Below, piece after piece: positions 3,629-62,358 of a stretch of DNA of 64,000 nt. The DNA comes from Candidatus Aminicenantes bacterium (GTDB lineage Bacteria; Acidobacteriota; Aminicenantia; Aminicenantales; UBA8522). The notes under the pieces were generated by a model that was given only the letters and a program-made list of their open reading frames with translations, was not told the origin of the DNA and ran no database searches. Location: assembly GCA_037444845.1 (NCBI GenBank), contig JBBILQ010000004.1, forward strand, positions 12,745 to 76,744, given 5' to 3'. The stretch's first letter is position 1. Each line of letters starts with the position of its first letter. The position numbers and the translations under genes are program-made.

Positions 3629-3970
3629 TCATTCCAACCTAAGTCTTTCCGCTTCGAGGCCAAAATCCTTCACCATAAGTTTGATGGCATGCGCTCTCTT
3701 CTCTGCTTTGAGATTTCCCTCATTGTAGTGGCAATCACCCAGATGACAACCGGGCGTCAGCAGTCCGTTCGACGCATTTCTATTTTGGGATAGCTCCGGC
3801 TTTCTATCCTCCTCATACCTGGCGAACATGACTCCCTTCTGCCTTGCCTTGGTATAATAGCCTTCTCTGAATCCATACGTTCTGATGTCCCGGAACAAAA
3901 CATAAACCTTCGTCCCGGGGAGAAAGCTCTTTTCCCTTCAAGGCGTTCTTCACTGCCTCGGTGCAACAAA
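3629..3970 (-). pseudogene. Decayed hdrA'-'mvhD fusion remnant: partial duplicate of the hdrA/mvhD junction with internal deletion
   Basis: The 89-aa ORF 3629..3898 reads FRDIRTYGFREGYYTKARQKGVMFARYEEDRKPE (matches HdrA 8084..11347 region FRDIRTYGFRESYYSEARRQGVMFARYEEDRKPE) joined to GCHLGDCHYNEGNLKAEKRAHAIKLMVKDFGLEAERLRLE (matches MvhD 7671..8087 GCHPGDCHYKEGNLKAEKRAEAIVLMLEDFGLEADRFKLE). Nucleotide identity is visible, e.g. ctgatgtcccggaacaaaacata shared with 8776..8798. Confidence 0.7.
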
Positions 3971-4028
3971 TGCTGAAGTAATAAATCTTGAATATTCGGT
4001 TGACACGACCGAAATTTCAAGATAATCT

Positions 4029-5349: not shown

Positions 5350-6381
5350 ATGAGGGAAATATTCCGGTTCGGTTCGCCAGCCGACAAAACGAAAAAACTC
5401 AGCAAGAGGACTTCCATAAGAAGCGCAAGTAAAGTGTTTGATACGCGCCCCCGGATCAGTGACTCTTTTGGACTGGATGAACGGATCGTCGTTCATTGCG
5501 GCGACTGCCTGGATTTCCTGAAATCGATTCCGGATCAAACACAACAGTTTATTGTAACATCCCCGCCCTATAATATAGGCAAGGAATACGAAAAACGCCT
5601 TGAGCTCCAGGTATATTTGGATCAACAAGCAAATGTCATTACTGAGTGCGCCCGGGTTTTAAAGCATTCCGGCAGCATCTGCTGGCAGGTTGGAAATTAT
5701 GTTAAGAACGGATCGATAATTCCCCTCGATACTGTCTTATATCCCATCTTTATAGGATTGGGCTTTAAGATGAGAAATCGCATCATTTGGCATTTTGAGC
5801 ACGGCCTTCATTGCTCAAGGCGCTTCTCTGGTCGCTACGAAACGATCATCTGGTTCACTAAGTCGGATGAATACTATTTTAATCTCGACGGGGTCCGCGT
5901 TCCGCAAAAATACCCAGGGAAAAGGCATTTCAAGGGCCCAAAAGCAGGACTGTACTCGGGCAATCCGCTGGGCAAGAATCCCGGCGATCTGTGGATCATT
6001 CCAAACGTCAAGAGTAACCATATCGAGAAGACAATCCACCCCTGCCAGTTTCCCGTTGAACTAATCGAGCGGCTCGTGTTAGCCCTGACTCAAACCGGAG
6101 ATTGGGGCCTGGACCCATTTCTTGGGGTCGGCACTTCGATCATCGCCGCAATCCGGCATGATCGAAGAGGCGCTGGCGCGGAAATCGTTCCCAAGTATGT
6201 TGAGCTTGCCAAAGAGAGAATTGACCAGGAGATCGACGGCACCCTAAAAACGCGGCCCATGAGCCGGCCTGTATATGATCCAGTTGAAGCGGGGAACAGC
6301 CTGACGAAATCCCCATGGGGATCAGAATCTAAGTCTCCTCAACTCTCCCTCATCAAAAGCTTGGTGAACAGGCAGGAATAG
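5350..6381 (+). CDS. Type II DNA methyltransferase, beta-class (N4-cytosine or N6-adenine; SPPY motif IV before FxGxG motif I)
   Basis: TSPPY catalytic motif near the N-terminus, HPCQFP and DPFLGVGTS (AdoMet motif I) near the C-terminus. This order is typical of N4C MTases such as M.BglII, M.PvuII and M.BamHI. Confidence 0.85.
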   Translation: MREIFRFGSPADKTKKLSKRTSIRSASKVFDTRPRISDSFGLDERIVVHCGDCLDFLKSIPDQTQQFIVTSPPYNIGKEYEKRLELQVYLDQQANVITECARVLKHSGSICWQVGNYVKNGSIIPLDTVLYPIFIGLGFKMRNRIIWHFEHGLHCSRRFSGRYETIIWFTKSDEYYFNLDGVRVPQKYPGKRHFKGPKAGLYSGNPLGKNPGDLWIIPNVKSNHIEKTIHPCQFPVELIERLVLALTQTGDWGLDPFLGVGTSIIAAIRHDRRGAGAEIVPKYVELAKERIDQEIDGTLKTRPMSRPVYDPVEAGNSLTKSPWGSESKSPQLSLIKSLVNRQE

Positions 6382-6385
6382 CTGA

Positions 6386-7155
6386 TTGACAATCGCTGAA
6401 ATCTATTCTCATCTTAATGGGCAGGAGTTTCTCTTGGTGCATAAGCGCGCGCTTTGGAAAGAAATCAAAGCGGTCATTAAAGAAGTCGATGCCGTGAAAT
6501 GCAGGACAAAAATCTCGAAGGAAAAAACGAAGAAAGGAAGAACGCTGTACAGCCCGATTGCTCTCAACGCAGATTTTAAAAGACTGCTCAGGGCAAAGAA
6601 TTGGCAAGAGAGCCGGGTTAGTTACTGGGTGACGAAGAGCGAAAAGCTTATTCGAAAGACGTTGACGATGACCGCGGCCGAGCAAAAACGCGAAATCGAA
6701 GAAGCTGGAGAGAAACCTATTTTTAGCTATAATCAGACGGATTTCGTCAAAGACAGAGTCGCGGTAGAAGTCCAATTCGGGAAATACGCGTTTGTTGCTT
6801 ATGATCTATTCGTAAAACACTTGGCTTTCTATGTTGGCGATCAAATAGCCTGATCTATTCACAAAATGATACGATAAAACGCCCCCTCCCCTGGCGGGAG
6901 GGGATAGAGGGGAGGGGGAATCTTTGAATGATCCCCCTCACCCCGACCCTCTCCCACATGGGGAGAGGAGATTTTTTCCTTTCATTTCGTGAATAGTCCA
7001 GGATAGATGTTGGGATTGAAATTCTTCCGATGAAGACTCTACAGAACGAGATGAGTTCGGGCGTTCCTTATTTTGAGGGTGAGTTTTATAACGTCGTTCG
7101 ACAGGGACGGGGAGTCCCCGCTGTGCCTCTGGTGCTAATCGGAGTCGAAGCTTAA
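6386..7155 (+). pseudogene. BglII-family type II restriction endonuclease gene interrupted by a MITE-A insertion (N-terminal part 6386..6848, C-terminal part 7007..7155)
   Basis: N-terminal ORF ends ...RVAVEVQFGKYAFVAYDLFVKHLAFYVGDQIA*. It contains the BglII-like ALWKEI segment and the catalytic EVQF block (BglII TLVEVQF). The stop codon lies in the MITE terminal repeat. Removing 6849..7006 (element plus one ATAG copy) restores an in-frame 203-aa reading frame: ...DQID VGIEILPMK...VPAVPLVLIGVEA*. Confidence 0.75.
6849..7002 (-). mobile_element. MITE-A copy 1 (154 bp), flanked by 4-bp ATAG duplications; sits inside the REase gene
   Basis: Near-identical to 20977..21116 and 59289..59442. Terminal inverted repeats cctgRYctattcacRaaat; direct repeats atag at 6845..6848 and 7003..7006. 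Confidence 0.85.
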
Positions 7156-8087: not shown

Positions 8088-11000
8088 CCTACTCCTAAGG
8101 CCGCGTTGGCCTGCGCGGCTAACTGTTCAAGGGTAAAGCCTTTGACGAATATTCCCTTCTTGGGACAGGTGGCCATGCAGCACCCGCAGCCCTTGCAGGC
8201 CGTCTCATCCACCTCGACCGTCTTTTTCACCGAACCATTTCTCATGTATTCGATTAATGTAATTGCCTGATAAGGACATGGTTCAATGCAGTAGGCGCAG
8301 CCGTCGCAGTTCTCATCCACCACCTGAGAAATGTTCGCCTCCAGCTCCACACTGTCCTTGGAGAGCACCGTCGATGCCCGGGAGGCTGTCGCCTGGGCCT
8401 GGATGATGCTCTCGTCGATGGCTTTGGCCGAATGAGCCAGGCCGCATAAAAAGACTCCCTCGGTGGCAAAATCAACAGGCCGCAACTTCATGTGGGCTTC
8501 CAGGAAAAACTTCTCCTTGGTTAAGGGGACTTTCAAGAATTTGGCAATCTCCTCGTTCCCCTGATCTGCCACAATTCCGGCCGACAACACGACCAAGTCC
8601 GCGGTAAGCTCCAGGGGCATCTTTAACGTCTGGTCAAAAACCACGACACTCAACCCATTCCCGTTCTGGGACACCTCCGGCTTTCTATCCTCTTCATACC
8701 TGGCGAACATGACTCCCTGCCGCCTGGCTTCGGAATAGTAGCTTTCCCTGAACCCGTACGTCCTGATGTCCCGGAACAAAACATACACATTCGTCTTAGA
8801 AGAAAGCTCTTTTATTTTTAGAGCGTTCTTGACGGCTTCGGTGCAGCAAATCCGGGAGCAGTAGGGCCTTTCCACATCCCGGGAGCCAACGCATTGAATC
8901 ATCACGATGTTCCTGGGAATTCCGTTATTCCTGCCCTTTGACCAAATTCCACCCTCGCCGAGGCGCTGCTCCAGCTCAAGCTGAGTTATGACTCTGTCAT
9001 TCTGTCCGTACAGATACTCCTTGGGTTTATATTGCTGAGCTCCGGTGGCAACGATCACGACGCCGTGTTCAAATTCTTCTGATTTTCCGTTCGTGCTAAT
9101 CGTTGTCTTGAAATTCCCGATTGTCCCTTCAATCTTTTCGATCTTAGCATCTGTGTAAAGAAAGATTTTTCCCGAGTCTTCGACCTGTTCGATAAGGCTT
9201 TTTAACCTGCTCTGCGGGTTTTCTCCGCTTATTAAGTAGTTGATATGCCGGAGATTTCCGCCCAGCTCCTTCTCCTTCTCAACCAGATGGACATAAAACC
9301 CCTGGTTAGCCAGTTCGATTGCCGAAGTCATGCCCGAAAGCCCGCCGCCGATGACGAGGGCAGCTTTAACGATGGGCACGGCTCTTTTCTGGAGAGGGCT
9401 CAATAATCGCGCCTTGGCCACAGCCATTCTGACCAAGTCCCTGGATTTCTCCGTTGCCTTTTCCGGCTCCGCCATATGCACCCAGGAGCACTGGTCCCTG
9501 ATATTGGCCATCTCGAAAAGATAGGGGTTCAGCCCAGCTTCCCTGGCCGTATTCCTGAACAGAGGCTCGTGAGTTCGCGGCGTGCAGGAGGCCACGACGA
9601 CGCGGTTGAGGCTGTGCTCCTTGATTTTTTCCTTTATTCTCTCTTGAGTGTCGTTCGAACAGGTGTAGAGGTTATTTTCTGCGTAAACGACACCGGGAAG
9701 CGTCCTGGCATACTCGACTACATCCAGGACACGGACCACCCCGGCGATATTTGTCCCGCAGTGACAGACGAAGACTCCGATTCGCGGCGCCTGCCCGCTG
9801 ACATCAGTCTCCGGGGGGTATTCCTTGGGAATAATAAGGCTTCCTTTAACGTCTCTTAAGAGCGACAGGACTTTGGACGAGGCGCCCGAGGCCTGCATGA
9901 CCGTCTCCGGTATATCCTTTGGCTCAGTAAAAGGACCGGCGACATACACTCCTTCGCGTTTTGATTCAACCGGAGCAAAAGGAGACGTCTTGCAGAAATG
10001 GAATTCATTGAGCTCGACCCCGAATATTTCAGAAATTTCTTTGGCCGATTTTGGGGGGAGCATGCCGACGGATAAAACAACAAGGTCATACTCACGCGAA
10101 GCCTTCCTGTCGTCCTCCGTTAGATAGTCGACGATCAGGTTTTTTGTTTGAGGGACCTCTTTAATGGTGGGCGGACGACACCTTACATAATTTACTCCAT
10201 GCTCCTTAGCCCTTTGATAATACTCATCAAACCCCTTGCTGAAGGCGCGCATGTCCATGATGTAGACATCACAGTCCAGATCTCCGCTGATATGCTCCTT
10301 GGCAATGATGGCTTCCTTGGTCGCGTACATGCAGCAGACAGAGGAGCAATAATCCCGCTCCGAATCACGCGAGCCCACGCACTGGATAAAGGCTATCCTT
10401 CTGGGTTCGGTCTTGTCATAAGGCCTTAAGACTTTTCCAGAATAGGGGCCCGAAGCAGAGAGGATTCTTTCAAACTCGAGCGAGGTGACGACATTAGGGG
10501 AAGCCCCGTATCCCAAACCCTCTTTGATCTTGGCGTCGAACAGGTCGTATCCCGGCGACAGGATGACCGCGCCGACATCCAATTCCATTTTCTTCTCGGT
10601 CTGGTCATAGTCAATCGCCCCGGCTTCGCAAAACTCCTTGCAGACCCCGCATTCATCCTTGAGCACATGGACACAGTATCGTTCGTCGATCGCTGCTTTA
10701 TGAGGAACGGCCTGGGGATAGGCAATGTAGGCCGCAGCCCGATCGAGCAATCCCTTGTCAAATTCATTCAAGATGGGGATTTCTTTATTCTTGCTGATTT
10801 TCTCAAGCCTAATCCTTTCGGTCGGACAAATAAAGGCACAGGCTCCGCAGGTCTGGCAGACATCGGAATTGGCATCAAACGGCGGGCCGACCTTCCGCTG
10901 AGGTCCGCGATGGACAAACCCGATGGCCGCGACACCCATTCGTTCGCAGCACATTCTTGTGCACAAGCCGCAAAGGAAACAATCATCGTTCCTCTTTGTA

Positions 11001-18429: not shown

Positions 18430-19390
18430 GGTTGCCTTTTACTGGTCCTCCTCGTGCGGCGGCTGCGAGGAATCCATCGTTGACCTGGCAGAAGACATCC
18501 TCAAAGTTGTTGCTGCCGTGGACATCGTCTTCTGGCCGGTCGCTCTCGATTTTAAGAAGAAGGATGTCGAGGCCATGCCCGACGGCTCCATCGCCGTGAG
18601 TTTCATCAACGGCGCCGTCAGGCTCTCCGAGCAGGAGGAAATGGTCAAGCTCCTGCGCCGGAAATCCCAGCTCGTCGTCGCCCACGGATCCTGCTCCCAT
18701 CTTGGAGGAATCCCCGGGCTGGGGAACTTCTGGAATAGAGAGACGATCTTCCGGCGCGCCTATCACACGACGCCTTCCACGCAAAACCCTGAGAAAATCG
18801 TCCCGCAGGAAAAGACCATCCTTGAAGGAAAAGAGCTCACCCTGCCCGTGTTTTACGACACGGTTTACGCTCTCAACCAGGTCATCGATGTCGACTATTA
18901 CCTGCCCGGGTGCGCGCCGCCTCGGGATCTCATCCTCAGCGCCGTCAGCGCCATTTTAGAGGGAAAGCTTCCGGCGAAAGGAGCCGTCCTCTCGCCCAAC
19001 ACGTCTCTCTGTGACGACTGCGATAGGAACAAAACCAAGCCCGAAAAATTGACCATCAAGGAGATCAAGCGTCCCTGGGAAATCATGTTAGACCCAGAAA
19101 AATGCTTCCTTGCCCAGGGAGTCATCTGCATGGGACCGGCCACCCGGACAGGCTGCAACGAGCGCTGCATCGAGGCGAACATGCCTTGCCGGGGCTGTTT
19201 CGGCCCCACCGACCAGGTCTACGACCAGGGCGCCAAGTTTCTCTCAGCCCTGGCTTCGATCTTAGACACGAACGACGAAAAGGAAATCGACAGGATCGTC
19301 CAATCCATATCCGACCCTGCAGGAACCTTTTACCGGTTCAGTCTGCCCACGTCCATCCTGCAGCGAAGACGCATGGAGGCCATAAAATGA
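18407..19390 (+). CDS. mvhG: NiFe hydrogenase small subunit, MvhG-type (group 3c)
   Basis: Start chosen at MSNAKPKVAFYWSSSCGGCEES (RBS GGAGG 5 nt upstream); proximal cluster Cys motifs; overlaps mvhD by 23 nt. Confidence 0.85.
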   Translation, partial: NMSNAKPKVAFYWSSSCGGCEESIVDLAEDILKVVAAVDIVFWPVALDFKKKDVEAMPDGSIAVSFINGAVRLSEQEEMVKLLRRKSQLVVAHGSCSHLGGIPGLGNFWNRETIFRRAYHTTPSTQNPEKIVPQEKTILEGKELTLPVFYDTVYALNQVIDVDYYLPGCAPPRDLILSAVSAILEGKLPAKGAVLSPNTSLCDDCDRNKTKPEKLTIKEIKRPWEIMLDPEKCFLAQGVICMGPATRTGCNERCIEANMPCRGCFGPTDQVYDQGAKFLSALASILDTNDEKEIDRIVQSISDPAGTFYRFSLPTSILQRRRMEAIK

Positions 19391-20847
19391 CTCAAAGAAT
19401 AACCATTGACCCGATCACTCGACTCGAAGGCCACGGCAAAATCGAGATTTTTCTCGACGACAAAGGAAATGTCGACCGGGCCATCCTCCAGATCCCGGAG
19501 CTCAGGGGTTTCGAACAGTTTGCCGTGGGCAGGCCGGTGGAGGAAATGCCGCGGATCACACCCCGCATCTGCGGTGTCTGTCCGACCGCTCACCACATGG
19601 CGTCGACCAAAACCGTCGACGCCGTCTTCCACGTCGAGCCCACTCCGACTGCCCGCAAAATCAGGGAACTCATCTACAACACGTTCATGATGGAAGACCA
19701 CACTCTCCACTTCTTCTTCCTGGGAGGGCCGGATTTCGTCGTCGGCCCCCAAGCGCCGGCGGCCGAGCGGAATATCTTGGGCGTCATCGGCAAGGTCGGC
19801 CTCGAGATTGGCGGCAAGGTCATCCGGGTGCGGCGTGAGTGCCGGGACATCATCAATTACCTGGCCGGAAAAGTCATCCACCCGGTCTGCGGCCTCCCGG
19901 GCGGCGTCTCCAAGGGGCTGGATGAAGAACACCGGGTTCAGTTCCTGGAGACGGCCAAATTCGCCGTCGAATTCGCCCAATTCGCCCTCCAGATATTTAA
20001 CGACGTCGTCCTGAAGAACAAAGAATACGTCGCCCTCGTCGTCGGCGACGCCTATAAAATCAAAACCTACTACATGGGACTTGTCGATGACAAAAACAAG
20101 GTCAATTTCTATGACGGAGCCGTGCGCGTCGTCTCTCCGGAAGGGAAAGAGTTCGCCAAGTTCAGGCCGAATGAATATTTAGAGCACATCGCCGAGCGCG
20201 TCGAGCCGTGGAGCTACATTAAGTTTCCTTTCTTAAAAAAAGTCGGCTGGAATGGGTTTACGGAAGGTTCGGGATCGGGCGTCTACAGGGTTGCCCCGCT
20301 GGCCCGGTTGAACGCTTCGGATGGCATGGCCACTTCTCTGGCCCAGAAAGAGCACGACCGGATGTACGAGACACTCGGAGGAAAACCTGCTCATAACACG
20401 TTGGCTTTCCACTGGGCCCGCCTGATTGAGGCCCTCCAGGCTGCCGAAGCCATGGTCATGTTGCTCGAGGACAGGTCCATCACCGATACAAATATCCGCA
20501 CGATCCCCACCCAGACGCCAACCGAAGGCGTGGGCATCGTAGAAGCACCCCGGGGAACGCTCATCCACCACTACAAGACAGATGAAAAGGGGATCGTTGA
20601 GGAGGCCAACTTGATCGTGGCCACGGTCAACAACTCGGCGGCTATCAACATGTCCATAGAGAAAGCGGCTAAAGCGTTCATAAAGGGTGGAAATGTCTCC
20701 GAAGGGCTGCTTAACCTGGCTGAGATGGCCTTCCGCCCCTACGACCCCTGCCATGCCTGCGGAACCCATGCCCTGCCAGGCGATATGCCGCTCGTCATCA
20801 ACATCTATGATCGAGACGGAGAGCTCGTCCGGCAGCTGAAGAGATGA
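19387..20847 (+). CDS. mvhA: NiFe hydrogenase large subunit, MvhA-type
   Basis: Start MTQRITIDPITRLEGHG overlaps the mvhG stop (ATGA). RICGVCP N-terminal Ni-binding motif; C-terminal DPCHACGTH followed by a short cleavable tail. Confidence 0.9.
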   Translation: MTQRITIDPITRLEGHGKIEIFLDDKGNVDRAILQIPELRGFEQFAVGRPVEEMPRITPRICGVCPTAHHMASTKTVDAVFHVEPTPTARKIRELIYNTFMMEDHTLHFFFLGGPDFVVGPQAPAAERNILGVIGKVGLEIGGKVIRVRRECRDIINYLAGKVIHPVCGLPGGVSKGLDEEHRVQFLETAKFAVEFAQFALQIFNDVVLKNKEYVALVVGDAYKIKTYYMGLVDDKNKVNFYDGAVRVVSPEGKEFAKFRPNEYLEHIAERVEPWSYIKFPFLKKVGWNGFTEGSGSGVYRVAPLARLNASDGMATSLAQKEHDRMYETLGGKPAHNTLAFHWARLIEALQAAEAMVMLLEDRSITDTNIRTIPTQTPTEGVGIVEAPRGTLIHHYKTDEKGIVEEANLIVATVNNSAAINMSIEKAAKAFIKGGNVSEGLLNLAEMAFRPYDPCHACGTHALPGDMPLVINIYDRDGELVRQLKR

Positions 20848-20910
20848 AACTCATGAGGATGGTCCTGAAGAAGCGCCCTCTCTTATAGGGATTTCCGTTT
20901 GTTCAATTCT

Positions 20911-21165
20911 AATAGGCGGATGTTTCTCCTGTCAAGGCGAGCACCCATTGCGTGCGTGGCATCCCATGATAACTAACCTGGACTATTCACGAAATGAAAG
21001 GAAAAAATCCCCTCTCCCCATGTGGGAGAGGGTCGGGGTGAGGGGGATCATTCAAAGATTCCCCCTCCCCCCAGGGGAGGGGCCTGCTTTCTGGCATAAT
21101 TTGTGAATAGGTCAGGCTAACTGAGATCACTTCGTTTCGCTCGCGATGACAAAGTCCTAACGGCA
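20911..21165. repeat. Repeat-C palindromic element (REP-like) split by a nested MITE-A insertion
   Basis: Left half gtcaaggcgagcacccattgcgtgcgtggcatcccatgataa, right half ctgagatcacttcgtttcgctcgcgatgac. Together they align to the uninterrupted copy at 38620..38696. Confidence 0.7.
20977..21116 (+). mobile_element. MITE-A copy 2 (140 bp; 14-bp internal deletion relative to the other copies) with CTAA target duplication
   Basis: ctaa at 20973..20976 and 21117..21120; inserted within repeat C. Confidence 0.85.
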
Positions 21166-21251
21166 ATTTTCGGGCCACTTTATTTCCTTGAGGGTCTTCG
21201 CTCTTTTAGAGTATAATGTTTTTTAAGAAAAAAATAGCCCCGTAAAGTCTG

Positions 21252-23234
21252 ATGCATCCTCTTCGCTTGTCCCTGCGAATAAAGCTCATCCTCAGTTTTT
21301 TGGTGGTCATCATCATAGGCGGGTTGATCTCCCTCACCTTCGGCCAGCGCTTGATCAAGAACGTTCTCATCTCTCAAGCCCAGGTCAAGGTCAATCACGA
21401 CCTGGCCTCTGCCTGGATCGTCTTCAACGAGAAGCTCAATGACATCGAAGACATCGTCAGCCTTACCGCTTCCCGGGAAAGCCTCCATGAGGCAATCCGG
21501 AATAACCGGAAAGACATTCTTCTCCGCTACCTGAACCGGGTCAGGAACCAGTACGGCCTGGACGTTCTGACCCTTACGGACAGACGAGGTCGGGTCATCA
21601 CGAGGACCAGGAACCCTGAGGTGGAAGGGGATGACCAGTCCGGGGATGAAATCGTCAGCTGGGCTCTTCAGCCCAATGTCCTCGCCTATCCCCAGATTAT
21701 CCCCCGGGAGGAGCTCCTTAAAGAGGGAAAAGACCTGGCCGAGAAAGCCTGCATGGAATTCATCCCTACCCCCAAGGCCGCTCCAAGGCCCGAGAATAAA
21801 GAGACAAGCGGCTTGATGCTTAAGGCAGCTGCCTCGGTCATCGATGAGAATGACGAGCCCCTCGGGGTTCTCTACGGCGGCATCCTCCTTAACCGCAACT
21901 ATGAGATCGTGGATAAGGTCAAAGAGACCGTCTTCAAAGGAGAAAAATACAAGGGGGTGGAGACGGGAACGGCGACGATCTTCCAGGGAGACCTGCGCAT
22001 CTCCACAAACGTCACCGATGCCCAGGGCCATCGGGCCATCGGCACGCGTATCTCCGAGGAGGTGAAGAAAGCCGTGCTCGATAAGGGCAAGTCCTGGAAC
22101 GACCGGGCGTTCGTCGTCAAGGACTGGTACATCACGGCTTACGAGCCGATCAAAAACATCAAGGACGAGATCATCGGCATCCTCTATGTGGGAACGCTGG
22201 AAAAGCCGTACATCGATATCGCCAATCGAGTCATGTTGACTTTCACTATCCTGGCCTCCCTCTGCGTCATCTTTCTCTTAGTCAGCCTCTATTTCTCAAC
22301 GACAAGAATCATCAAGCCTCTTCAGCGGATGGTCAACGCTACTCAGGAGATTGCCAAAGGAGACCTCGAGCATAAGGTGGAAATCAAGTCGACCGACGAG
22401 CTGGGCTATCTTGCCTCCTCCTTCAACCAGATGACCGAAAAACTCAAGGCCGCCAACGAGGAGCTTATCGAATGGGGCAGGACGCTTGAAAAAAAAGTCC
22501 AGGAGAGGACCGGAGAACTCCTGGAGATGCAGGCCTCCCTCGTTCAGTCAGAAAAACTGGCCTCGCTGGGCAAGCTGGCCGCAGGAATCGCCCACGAAAT
22601 CAACAACCCCCTGGGAGGAATTCTCATTTATAGCCATCTCCTCCTCGAAGAGACAAAGGGAAAAAGCGGCCAGTCTGAAACCCTGAAAAAAATCATCAAA
22701 GAGACATCCCGCTGCAAGAACATCGTCAAAGGGCTGTTGGAGTTTGCCCGGCCCAAAGAGCCGGAGATGGCGCCAACCGACCTCAATGAGGTAATAAACA
22801 AGACCCTGGCGATTTTTGAGCGCCAGGCGCTTTTTCAAAACATCAAGGTCGAGAAAGATTTTTCTGGCATTCCCAGGATCGTGGCTGACGGGTCCCAGCT
22901 CCAGCAGGTCTTCGCCAACATCATCATCAACGCCGCCGAAGCCATGGACGGAAATGGCCTGCTGACGATCAAGACATATCTGGACACAAAGACCAACGTT
23001 TTAAGAATCGAGTTCCGGGACACGGGACACGGAATCCGAGAAGAGGACCTGCCCCGTCTCTTCGAGCCTTTCTTCACCACTAAAGAAGTGGGCAAGGGGA
23101 CCGGCTTGGGCCTGGCCATCAGCTACAGCATCGTCCAAAAACACAACGGGTCTATCAAGGTAAAGAGCGAGGTCGGCCAGGGCTCAACCTTTACCGTCAT
23201 TCTCCCCCTGAACAAGGAAGCGCCATATGAATAA
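21252..23234 (+). CDS. Sensor histidine kinase with periplasmic sensor domain, HAMP, HisKA and HATPase_c
   Basis: N-terminal TM segment LILSFLVVIIIGGLISL and a second TM segment; HAMP region; SEKLASLGKLAAGIAHEINNPLGG; GTGLGLAISYSIVQKHNGSIKV. Confidence 0.85.
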   Translation: MHPLRLSLRIKLILSFLVVIIIGGLISLTFGQRLIKNVLISQAQVKVNHDLASAWIVFNEKLNDIEDIVSLTASRESLHEAIRNNRKDILLRYLNRVRNQYGLDVLTLTDRRGRVITRTRNPEVEGDDQSGDEIVSWALQPNVLAYPQIIPREELLKEGKDLAEKACMEFIPTPKAAPRPENKETSGLMLKAAASVIDENDEPLGVLYGGILLNRNYEIVDKVKETVFKGEKYKGVETGTATIFQGDLRISTNVTDAQGHRAIGTRISEEVKKAVLDKGKSWNDRAFVVKDWYITAYEPIKNIKDEIIGILYVGTLEKPYIDIANRVMLTFTILASLCVIFLLVSLYFSTTRIIKPLQRMVNATQEIAKGDLEHKVEIKSTDELGYLASSFNQMTEKLKAANEELIEWGRTLEKKVQERTGELLEMQASLVQSEKLASLGKLAAGIAHEINNPLGGILIYSHLLLEETKGKSGQSETLKKIIKETSRCKNIVKGLLEFARPKEPEMAPTDLNEVINKTLAIFERQALFQNIKVEKDFSGIPRIVADGSQLQQVFANIIINAAEAMDGNGLLTIKTYLDTKTNVLRIEFRDTGHGIREEDLPRLFEPFFTTKEVGKGTGLGLAISYSIVQKHNGSIKVKSEVGQGSTFTVILPLNKEAPYE

Positions 23235-30683: not shown

Positions 30684-30744
30684 AATTCCTCCGCCTCCTC
30701 CATTCCCTTCCCGCTGCCCCAGGAAAAGAAAGTAACTTCTATAA

Positions 30745-30866
30745 TGGGCGCAGGGGGCTGCTCTAAAGCCCCCGTAGCGGAGGGGGGACCCGTCGGCTTC
30801 TCCGACGGGGGGAACCGACGGGACTGGTTCCCCGGGGCGCGGGGGCCAAGAGCAGCCTCCTGCGCC
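30745..30866 (+). ncRNA. Repeat B copy 1: about 122-nt structured element (outer 19-bp stem enclosing three hairpins), candidate small RNA preceded by TATAAT
   Basis: Second copy at 52253..52376 shows compensatory changes in the stems. G-U pairs are possible only on the plus strand. TATAAT lies at 30739..30744, immediately upstream. Confidence 0.5.
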
Positions 30867-30961
30867 CTATCCAATGATATAAGTAGAAATGCTTAGCGGA
30901 GTAAAATCCGGGCTGAAATGAATCGCGATTTGCGCTAAAATAGAGCTCCAGGAGAAAAGCC

Positions 30962-38505: not shown

Positions 38506-38619
38506 CGTGTTGACCTCCTCAGATTTGTCTTAGCATAACTTTATATTGTCCGACGAAATGATGATCTGATCAAGGCGCATTTCACAGTCCAGAATTGCCG
38601 TTAGGAAAACGTTATCCCT

Positions 38620-38696
38620 GTCATCGCGAGCACCCCTTGGGTGCGTGGCGATCTCATCAACACAAACTGAGATTGCTTCGCTTCGCTCGCAAAGAC
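38620..38696. repeat. Repeat-C palindromic element (uninterrupted copy) in the hdrC/gdh divergent intergenic region
   Basis: gtcatcgcgagcaccccttgggtgcgtggcgatctcatcaacacaaactgagattgcttcgcttcgctcgcaaagac; the terminal arms gtcatcgcgagc and gctcgcaaagac are inverted repeats. Confidence 0.6.
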
Positions 38697-39087
38697 AATT
38701 TTCTATCGGCAATTTCTGGTCACGGCCTCGGCGTTAGCCAGAAGAGATTGCAATTTTGATACCAACTTCAGGGATAAAAACAGGCTCTCCTGGATCCCTA
38801 TAACCTGTTGATATCAAACAAATAGCTGGATCAGGTCATTCTCGGCGTCAGACCCTTAGGGTTCCGCTGAGGATTTTTTCCCCACTTTTGGGAATTTTTC
38901 CCAAACTCACCCCTACTTCCATCGCCCATGCGAAAATTGTCAATCGTGAGATCGCCGCGGCATCTTCAATCCCTCCTCATGACGGGGATCGCGCTGTCCC
39001 ACCGGCAACTTTGGGCCCCGGTCGCGAACAGGCACCCTTCGGTCTTATGATATAATAAACGCTAACTGTATATGGGAGAAAGTCACG

Positions 39088-45519: not shown

Positions 45520-45695
45520 AGTGTCATTGCGAGGAACGCAGTGACGAAGCAATCCGACGCAGTCGCCGCGAGCGCAGCGTGGCGGTCTCATGCCTATTTC
45601 GCACTTGATGAGATCCCTCGCCATGCTCGGGACGGCCCAAAGGGCCGGATTGCTTCGCTCCCGCCGGTCGCTCGCAATGACCATGTAATATTATT
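45520..45695. repeat. Long imperfect palindrome related to repeat C, between pstS and the Rrf2 gene
   Basis: Left arm gtcattgcgaggaacgcagtgacgaagcaatcc pairs with right arm ggattgcttcgctcccgccggtcgctcgcaatgac; internal ttgatgagatccctcgcca resembles the repeat-C core. Confidence 0.55.
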
Positions 45696-52056: not shown

Positions 52057-52252
52057 GATAACCTCCTTTCGTCTTCCCCTTATGCAAACCGGAGGCCAAA
52101 GCCTGGATGTTGTATAGTTACTTTATTTTCAATGAGATAGAATTTTGTCCGGCTGGCTGATGTCAATGTCCGTTGACTTTTTCTGCCGCCGCGATCAACC
52201 GGCGTTGACGCAGGAGTGCGGGAAGAATCTCCAAATATGTGATTTCTATTAT

Positions 52253-52376
52253 GGGTGCAAGGGGCTGCTCTGAAGCCCCCGTAGCGGAGGGGGGACCCAT
52301 CGGATTCTCCGATGGGGGGAACCGACGGGACTGGTTCCCCCGGGGCGCGGGGGCCAAGGGCAGCCTCTTGCGCCCA
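52253..52376 (+). ncRNA. Repeat B copy 2 (structured element, candidate small RNA) preceded by TATTAT
   Basis: About 90% identical to 30745..30866, with compensatory substitutions in two stems. Confidence 0.5.
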
Positions 52377-52412
52377 ATTGAATCACATAACGGAGATATC
52401 TACAGGAGTGTT

Positions 52413-59035: not shown

Positions 59036-59288
59036 GATCGTGTTTTCCAGCCCAAACGGCCGCCTCTATTCAAGACGACTGACCCCGCCTCTTCTTTCTC
59101 AGCCTCTGGAGCATCAACCCTGATGAAAATACTCTAAGTATGAATATAAAGACTTGGATGAGCGCCTAATTATTGACTGGTAATCCATTCCATCTGAGGC
59201 GGAAGCGTTCCCAGTGAGATGAATTGAAAGACATCCCTTAAGATCCCAATAGTCTGGGGGATATTGTCATAGGCGAGTTTTCTATTAA

Positions 59289-59442
59289 CCTGGACTATTC
59301 ACGAAATGAAAGGAAAAAATCCCCTCTCCCCATGTGGGAGAGGGTCGGGGTGAGGGGGATCATTCAAAGATTCCCCCTCCCCTCTATCCCCTCCCCCCAG
59401 GGGAGGGGCCTGCTTTCTGGCATAATTCGTGAATAGGTCAGG
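59289..59442 (+). mobile_element. MITE-A copy 3 (154 bp) flanked by TTAA / TTAG
   Basis: Identical architecture to copies 1 and 2; intergenic between dprA and the nucleotidyltransferase gene. Confidence 0.85.
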
Positions 59443-59714
59443 TTAGATAAGTTTTAAGCATTCATCCCTGCTGGCATCGATAAGGAGTATAAACCGGCAG
59501 CTCGGAAAGCGTCAAGTTGCCGGAGAAGGAATTGGTTCTTGGTTGTACCAGATCTATATAAAACGTCATAAATAGTCGGGCGCAATTTTAGGCGTTATCA
59601 CTCCTGCCTTTATGGATAGATCACGTTGGTGAAGAAGTAAACTGGCGCCTTCGAAGGCAGTTCCTTATTCGAAAATGATAGCAACACAGGGTCCTGCCGA
59701 ATTTTCGCCTTGCT

Positions 59715-61966: not shown

Positions 61967-62203
61967 GTGACCTTCCTTCCCGCCGATATCTTAAGTGGCA
62001 TGAGAACGGGTCCTGTCCCGGCGCGAGCTTCTCGACCCCAGCGTGGCGCGCGCCCGGCCGGACCCGGACGGTCAGCAATGTTTTCTCCTTCTTCCCGCCC
62101 GCTTCTTTTCTCTCCATGGTGGATTCCCGGCGGCGACGCCAATATCGCAATTTACTATAAATGGAGCAATTTCTATCGCGATGTCATTTTACACAAATTC
62201 GCA

Positions 62204-62243
62204 GATAGAATCACCCGGCGGGTCCTGTCGCGGTTCACCCCCG
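62204..62243. promoter_or_regulatory. Conserved 40-nt motif D, copy 2, in the long 5' leader of nupC
   Basis: gatagaatcacccggcgggtcctgtcgcggttcacccccg; 37/40 identical to 2718..2757. A third GGGTCCTGTC occurrence lies at about 62008. Confidence 0.4.
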
Positions 62244-62358
62244 AACCACGCCACCCATCGGGTGTAATCCCTGTCATGCTCATTTAGTGGCAAAGCAAAC
62301 GCTTTTGTTGGTGAAAATTCCCAAAAGGCAATTTCGGGGTGCTTTCCGGTGTTTTTTG

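Follow-up and report, generated by a model that had tools for sequence, protein, structure and literature searches.

The spacer at positions 20,848 to 21,251 of the analyzed DNA (the window, one continuous stretch of 64 kb) holds a short repeat with inverted ends, MITE-A, which is flanked by the two halves of a palindromic repeat, repeat C. This locus raises two questions: whether one mobile element was inserted into another, and which transposition system moved the inner one. The initial annotation proposed a nested insertion and Tc1/IS630-like targeting.

Anatomy of MITE-A and its copies

The end motif CCTGRYCTATTCACRAAAT was found six times in the window at three or fewer mismatches (0.05 matches expected). 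The matches formed three inverted pairs (6849/7002, 20977/21116 and 59289/59442), and the conserved ends attributed to the three copies were thus recovered. The copies and the parts of copy 2 are as follows.

6849..7002, minus strand: MITE-A copy 1, 154 bp, in the opposite orientation, with ATAG at 6845-6848 and 7003-7006
20973..20976: left CTAA target duplication of copy 2
20977..21116, plus strand: MITE-A copy 2, 140 bp, with 19-nt inverted ends
20977..20995, plus strand: left terminal inverted repeat of copy 2, CCTGGACTATTCACGAAAT
21098..21116, minus strand: right terminal inverted repeat of copy 2, reading CCTGACCTATTCACAAATT on the minus strand
21117..21120: right CTAA target duplication of copy 2
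59289..59442, plus strand: MITE-A copy 3, 154 bp, with TTAA at 59285-59288 and TTAG at 59443-59446

All three copies were spanned by a full-length alignment. Copies 2 and 3 were 99.3% identical outside a 14-bp internal deletion in copy 2, which falls between CCCCTCCCC direct repeats; copy 1 was 89–90% identical to both. The near-identity of copies 2 and 3 argues, at the sequence level, for recent activity of MITE-A. A contig of this locus from a Logan assembly, with the same sequence as the window, stopped 26 nt inside the MITE, as expected of a multi-copy repeat. The copies (140–154 bp) were non-coding, and their sole ORFs, 52–63 aa long and running across the GC hairpins, were spurious.

As had been observed initially, the flanking tetramers of all three copies shared a central TA (ATAG, CTAA and TTAA/TTAG). 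The target duplications were perfect at copies 1 and 2 (ATAG/ATAG and CTAA/CTAA); the one described at copy 3 was imperfect, with a single mismatch (TTAA/TTAG). The copy 1 tetramer ATAG deviates from strict YTAR. MITE-A thus has the features of a MITE: it is short, lacks a transposase gene, and has terminal inverted repeats, a fixed-length 4-bp duplication, an empty site and ends that are shared with autonomous insertion sequences.

The interior of MITE-A consists of GC-rich hairpins (predicted RNA fold −87.7 kcal/mol, z = −7). Two of them resemble terminators, each by consensus match only.

21010..21032, minus strand: terminator-like hairpin, CCCTCTCCC-loop-GGGAGAGGG followed by GATTTTTTCC
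21062..21082, plus strand: terminator-like hairpin, CCCCTCCCC-CAG-GGGGAGGGG followed by CCTGCTTTCT

Because each strand has such a hairpin with a T-tract, MITE-A may terminate or stabilize transcripts arriving from either side, with the two hairpins acting as putative terminators on either strand. No Rfam match in the window reached the gathering score, and nothing beyond noise appeared in the interval 20850–21250 when E values of up to 1 were admitted.

Nested insertion and empty sites

The halves of repeat C, its relatives in the window and the surroundings of copy 2 are listed below.

19387..20847, plus strand: upstream neighbor of copy 2, F420-non-reducing (Mvh-type) NiFe hydrogenase large subunit
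20881..21177: block missing from the hydrogenase–kinase spacer of relatives, made up of approximately 153 nt from repeat C and 144 nt from the MITE with its duplication
20928..20976, plus strand: left half of the interrupted repeat C, with the core palindrome arm GTCAAGGCGAGC from 20931
21121..21169, plus strand: right half of the interrupted repeat C, with the core arm GCTCGCGATGAC up to 21150
21252..23234, plus strand: downstream neighbor of copy 2, Cache/HAMP sensor histidine kinase
38589..38719, plus strand: uninterrupted repeat C, 131 bp, with its own inverted ends CCAGAATTGCCGTTAGGA and CCAGAAATTGCCGATAGAA
45523..45681, plus strand: third, diverged palindrome member, GTCATTGCGAG...CTCGCAATGAC

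Repeat-C homology around copy 2 covered 20928–20976 and 21117–21169. The nested insertion annotated at 20905–21170 was therefore upheld within the narrower interval 20928–21169, and the uninterrupted copy was present but extended beyond the 38620–38696 assigned to it. Once the MITE and a single CTAA were taken out, the flanks were 80.8% identical over 99 nt to 38617–38715 (E = 2.5e-5 within the window). The alignment was collinear across the single CTAA and ungapped at the junction, where CTAA stood opposite CAAA of the intact copy. Both the clean CTAA duplication (20973–20976 and 21117–21120) and the rejoining of the flanks into repeat C were thereby confirmed.

By its hydrogenase large subunit, the window was placed close to MAGs of Candidatus Aminicenantales. 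The hydrogenase–kinase spacer of relatives gave an empty site. In L203–L206, with hydrogenases 93.6–94.9% identical to that of the window, a 106-nt spacer preceded the same kinase gene; it did not contain the 297-nt block and aligned to the window on either side of 20881–21177. These boundaries are good to approximately 10 nt, as the original terminator hairpin there has diverged. More distant relatives (L197–L201) had spacers of 46–70 nt. Because the whole block is absent from the spacer of the relatives, copy 2 is, judged from these alignments, a nested insertion: repeat C was itself inserted, and MITE-A was inserted within it. A MITE inside another repeat is ordinary biology. In the proposed order of events, the approximately 150-nt palindromic repeat C would have entered the short hydrogenase–kinase spacer, and MITE-A would then have landed on a CTAA at the position equivalent to the apical loop of the repeat-C hairpin. 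The exact sequence predicted for the uninterrupted site of copy 2 was also sought in metagenomes, where it had no match.

It is extremely improbable that no nested transposition took place, that is, that the MITE and the repeat-C halves form one composite repeat or that the likeness of the flanks is owed to chance or recombination. Such a reading could draw on the presence in the window of only one interrupted repeat C and one close copy that is intact, and on the interrupted one having a degenerate left outer end and a weak rejoined hairpin (z = 0.06). It is opposed by the collinear rejoining of the flanks across one CTAA (E = 2.5e-5) and by the unrelated flanks of MITE-A copies 1 and 3. In addition, MITE-A relatives elsewhere were found without repeat-C flanks, and repeat-C-type palindromes stood alone at 45523–45681 and in other metagenomes.

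A second empty site was found for copy 1, which interrupts a gene.

6386..7155, plus strand: BglII-family restriction endonuclease gene split by copy 1 (5′ part 6386-6848, 3′ part 7007-7155)

The ORF from 6386 enters copy 1 and stops in its first bases. Removal of 154 + 4 nt (copy 1 and one ATAG) gave a 203-aa ORF, the protein of which matched Pfam PF09195 (Endonuc-BglII) over positions 1–163 of 163 (120.9 bits). An intact N6/N4 DNA methylase gene (5350–6381) adjoins the split gene. L207–L210, in which the methylase is at least 90% identical, had an uninterrupted BglII-family gene of 203 aa at the same place, and the rejoined window gene was 83% identical to it at the DNA level, with no gap; a single tetranucleotide ATTG was present where the window has ATAG-MITE-ATAG. 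Insertion of copy 1 costs the endonuclease its C-terminal 50 residues and spares the methylase. The region 5350–7155 represents a type II restriction-modification pair in which copy 1 leaves an orphan methylase; the relatives keep both genes. The empty sites were drawn from relatives that are 83–95% identical and belong to other lineages than the source strain. For copy 3, an empty site was sought via dprA relatives, in which synteny stopped short of the site, and no syntenic relative was found.

Target sites and autonomous partner elements

The duplicated unit was 4 bp long and varied by copy (ATAG, CTAA, TTAA, CTAG). A curated set of 53 complete elements with these ends showed a perfect 4-bp duplication in 37 cases and one with a single mismatch in 16 (chance tetramer identity of 0.22, from the observed tetramer frequencies; binomial tail 1.6e-13). 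When only flanks that had not been selected were considered (window and genome scan), 16 of 22 tetramers were YTAR and 19 had a central TA; the most common was TTAA (9 of 22). The duplication pattern is the outcome of a 4-bp staggered cut at a TA-centered site.

Metagenomes were scanned with YTAR plus the end motif, which yielded 120 loci; because YTAR was required on one flank, this selection biases target-site composition, but not the duplication test. The scan yielded approximately 50 MITEs with the same ends (93–291 bp), representing dozens of different MITE families. Eight of the 120 loci contained elements of 1684–1695 bp with the same ends, CTAG- or TTAA-type duplications and one long ORF of 456–471 aa (42–70% mutual identity). 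An IS1380-type element of 1691 bp (L193/L113) had a left end identical over 19 nt to that of MITE-A. Proteins of the partner elements matched the NCBIfam model NF033539 (IS1380) with 362 and 318 bits, where the cutoff is 180, and Pfam PF13701 with 422 and 364 bits; the general model PF01609 (DDE_Tnp_1) was also matched. As a control without selection on the end motif, two homologues were picked on protein similarity alone (62–64% identity). One of them (L218) had an end in which CTAG was followed directly by CCTGAATAATTCAT, and the other (L219), a 1709-bp element, had CCCGGATTATTCAT at both ends.

All 10 autonomous elements found with MITE-A-type ends (L082, L083, L169, L193, L113, L093, L135, L101, L218 and L219) encoded an IS1380-type transposase, and none encoded an IS630-type transposase. 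Their length (1684–1709 bp), ends (CCTG/CCCG) and duplications (CTAG/CTAG) fit those of the IS1380 family. MITE-A shared only its ends with them: its subterminal sequence was absent from every insertion sequence sampled. The end motif was conserved in dozens of MITE families from many phyla. By homology, the IS1380-type clade with these ends is very abundant; at least 7973 proteins were similar to the partner transposases at E ≤ 1e-30, mostly on contigs of 1.6–2.3 kb, and none of the best 120 of these at least 7973 homologues was labelled Aminicenantes.

A genome-collection scan with the bare 19-mer gave, among the matches listed, mostly chance matches, approximately 10 MITEs and no transposase. 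These MITEs had TTAA/TTAA or CTAG/CTAG flanks and came from Marinilabiliaceae, other Bacteroidota and other MAGs; one of them (L018) was a 156-bp relative of MITE-A. Two end-motif scans of viral contigs gave chance matches only, and blastn of plasmids with the end region gave nothing relevant. The closest named element in plasmids was IS1380A, with 38.6% protein identity to the partner transposases. Its ends, read from an Acetobacter plasmid (CGCGGAAATCTCACA), differed from CCTGGACTATTCAC and shared the motif in part.

Taken with the partner elements, MITE-A is very probably a MITE derived from, and mobilized in trans by, an insertion sequence of the IS1380 (DDE) family. Since tblastn detected no IS1380-type transposase within the 64-kb window, the mobilization in trans that was proposed initially would still apply. 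The transposase, encoded elsewhere in the genome, would bind ends of approximately 19 nt, CCTGRNCTATTCAC(R)AA, as the anatomy and the shared ends suggest. Insertion would take place at a YTAR-like tetranucleotide with a central TA, and staggered cuts presumed to lie 4 bp apart would leave the 4-bp duplication upon repair. The source genome would hold, or have held, a matching IS1380 copy; the MITE-A copies may also be fossils, and the resident partner in the source genome is one that we infer.

Two other transposase families were considered. Tc1/IS630 elements duplicate the TA dinucleotide only. That MITE-A is an element of this type, targeting TA and moved by an IS630-family transposase, has next to no probability, although the central TA in all window flanking tetramers would suit it and IS630-derived MITEs are common in bacteria. 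Tc1/IS630 is not supported because the whole variable 4-bp unit is duplicated (intact in 37 of 53 elements), not TA. Moreover, the 10 autonomous elements with these ends were all IS1380-type, and the partner proteins matched no IS630 model in Pfam or NCBIfam. The family assignment is hence corrected from Tc1/IS630 to IS1380, and the Tc1/IS630-like targeting of the initial annotation is replaced by a 4-bp YTAR duplication.

The IS5 group inserts at YTAR with a 4-bp duplication. Mobilization of MITE-A by a transposase of this group (IS5 family) agrees with the 16 of 22 unbiased flanks that were YTAR, which is not diagnostic, and with the match of the partner transposases to the general model PF01609. 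It was nonetheless judged very improbable: the best models were IS1380-specific (NF033539, 318–362 bits; PF13701, 364–422 bits), and no IS5-type element with these ends occurred among approximately 200 loci. In addition, IS5-group ends begin with GG/GA, whereas the ends here start with CC.

The closest MITE-A relatives beyond the window were on metagenome contigs: L195 (Ga0194125), L116 and L119 (Ga0194112), and L081. L195 is a one-ended truncated copy, and L116 is a 103-bp deletion derivative. Differing IS1380-type MITEs (L155, L179, L143, L189, L095–L098, L117 and L181) had the same internal module of CCCTCACCC / CCCTCTCCC...GGGAGAGGG hairpins, and an additional 48-nt module was present in L117 and L181. 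The interiors of IS1380-type MITEs look modular and exchangeable. A 1946-bp segment at L125 11865–13810 lay between IS1380-type ends with CTAG/CTAG flanks and contained a 328-aa ORF and no transposase. Either this segment is a non-autonomous element with cargo, or host DNA lies here between two MITE ends.

Palindromes, hairpin loops and comparison with known systems

Repeat C, the ends of which are CCAGAAWTTGCCGWTAGGA, is a member of a palindrome family with arms GTCATTGCGAG...CTCGCAATGAC, of which three members were present in the window. For the core of the intact copy, a long hairpin was predicted (DNA fold −18.6 kcal/mol, z = −3.6), and CAAA at 38663–38666, homologous to the MITE target, fell within the 11-nt apical loop of this hairpin. 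Palindromes of the GTCATTGCGAG...CTCGCAATGAC family were also present in unrelated MAGs and metagenomes (L033 7780–7870, L061 329–411 and L127 6354–6445), and those of L061 and L127 sat within IS1380-type MITEs. The family seems widespread; in the literature searched, its palindrome string had no match.

At L127 6283–6573, the first hairpin loop in a 291-bp relative of MITE-A contained an insert of approximately 135 nt, as seen on comparison with uninterrupted relatives. The insert was a repeat-C-like palindrome with ends GAGGCTGTGTCA / GAGACTGTGTCA and an apparent GGA duplication. Because a MITE lies in repeat C in the window and a palindrome lies in a MITE-A relative at L127, MITE-A-type elements and GTCATTGCGAG...CTCGCAATGAC palindromes are, as far as their sequences tell, nested in each other both ways.

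Specific targeting of hairpin loops of palindromic repeats by MITE-A or its IS1380 clade is unlikely. The window target (the apical loop of repeat C) would fit such targeting, as would two more independent MITE-A relatives in loops of long palindromes (L095/L130 and L117) and the reciprocal case at L127. When 52 elements were compared with random YTAR sites of the same loci, however, the rejoined sites did not differ in folding energy or in the number of enclosing base pairs (Mann-Whitney test, P = 0.51); 10 or more enclosing pairs were found at 40% of the insertion sites and at 48% of the random YTAR sites. Copies 1 and 3 were outside hairpins. Because no general hairpin preference was seen over the 52 elements, the hairpin-loop location of copy 2 was probably opportunistic, at an exposed, non-essential, TA-containing intergenic site, and reflects no targeting rule. 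A weak hairpin preference of MITE-A-type insertion could still exist.

The IS1380 family (IS1380A, IS1247, ISEcp1, ISPme1) comprises elements of approximately 1.55–2.0 kb with a single ORF, CC-initial ends and a 4–5-bp duplication (ISfinder description). The partner elements are alike in size (1.68–1.71 kb), single ORF, CC ends and 4-bp duplications, and their proteins match the NCBIfam IS1380 equivalog model; MITE-A differs in carrying no transposase. IS1247 is 1672 bp long and has inverted repeats of 16/13 bp and a duplication of 5 bp (PMC3281130), and "transposable modules" from one-ended transposition are described for the family (PMC9330008). The literature searched contained no IS1380-derived MITE, and nothing on IS1380 target sites or the string GTCATTGCGAGC. 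MITE-A is a newly recognized IS1380-type MITE, in a family without described MITEs in that literature.

MITE-A resembles other bacterial MITEs in its size of 140–154 bp, inverted ends matching an IS family, target duplications, mostly intergenic location and strong predicted stem-loop. Among these, MITEPye1 of Paracoccus yeei derives from IS1182 (PMC11578231). MITE-A has another parent family; its internal module is built of GC-rich CCCTCTCCC/GGGAGAGGG hairpins, and its end motif occurs across many phyla. With MITEs of the Tc1/mariner-IS630 type it has in common a central TA target and a short inverted-repeat structure moved in trans; it differs in the duplication of four bases and in the lack of an IS630-type partner with these ends. 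The IS5 family differs from MITE-A in its ends and from the partner elements in transposase family. Some insertion sequences, such as IS1397, target REP/BIME palindromes. Copy 2 likewise sits where a repeated extragenic palindrome forms its loop, but no statistical hairpin preference was found here, and the tetranucleotide explains the site.

Eukaryotic piggyBac elements likewise have CC-initial ends and a 4-bp duplication at a palindromic TA-centered tetranucleotide. IS1380 transposases serve as a distant prokaryotic outgroup for piggyBac (PMC10140906). Target choice was looser here (CTAG, CTAA/TTAG and TTAA) than the strict TTAA of piggyBac, and the partner transposase matched PF13701/PF01609 and no piggyBac Pfam model. 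It is conceivable, if doubtful, that the CCTGRNCTATTCAC ends mark a very large cross-phylum IS1380-type clade and its MITEs, inserting at palindromic TA-centered tetranucleotides (TTAA, CTAG, CTAA/TTAG) with a 4-bp duplication. If this were true enzymatic specificity, it would be the prokaryotic counterpart of piggyBac TTAA targeting, and the tetranucleotide target-joining geometry, perhaps with seamless excision, would predate the IS1380/piggyBac split. The mutual nesting with GTCATTGCGAG...CTCGCAATGAC palindromes may reflect hairpin loops serving each kind of element as safe landing sites.

With the end motif and the 4-bp YTAR rule, many small repeats that have gone unrecognized in environmental genomes can be annotated, among them Aminicenantes-like genomes, those of Bacteroidota and others. 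Repeats of this kind break assemblies, make spurious ORFs, inactivate genes and may add intergenic terminator hairpins.

Other repeats were also present in the window. A GC-rich intergenic repeat of approximately 150 nt occurred in two copies (30732–30882 and 52239–52390; 87–91% identical), each preceded by a TATAAT-like box, with one compensatory stem change (CCCGTCGG..CCGACGGG vs. CCCATCGG..CCGATGGG). It had no Rfam match above noise and may be an undescribed structured RNA, to judge by its sequence. A 62-nt intergenic direct repeat (TTCGCCGATAGAATCACCCGGCGGGTCC...) was found at 2712–2773 and 62198–62259, 59 kb apart and 84% identical. Direct repeats at 3769–3986 and 8650–8866 (76–84% identical, 4.88 kb apart) were in or beside coding regions, and several Cys-rich (4Fe-4S-like) repeat segments were present (D3); both the 3769/8650 repeats and the Cys-rich segments probably represent paralogous genes.
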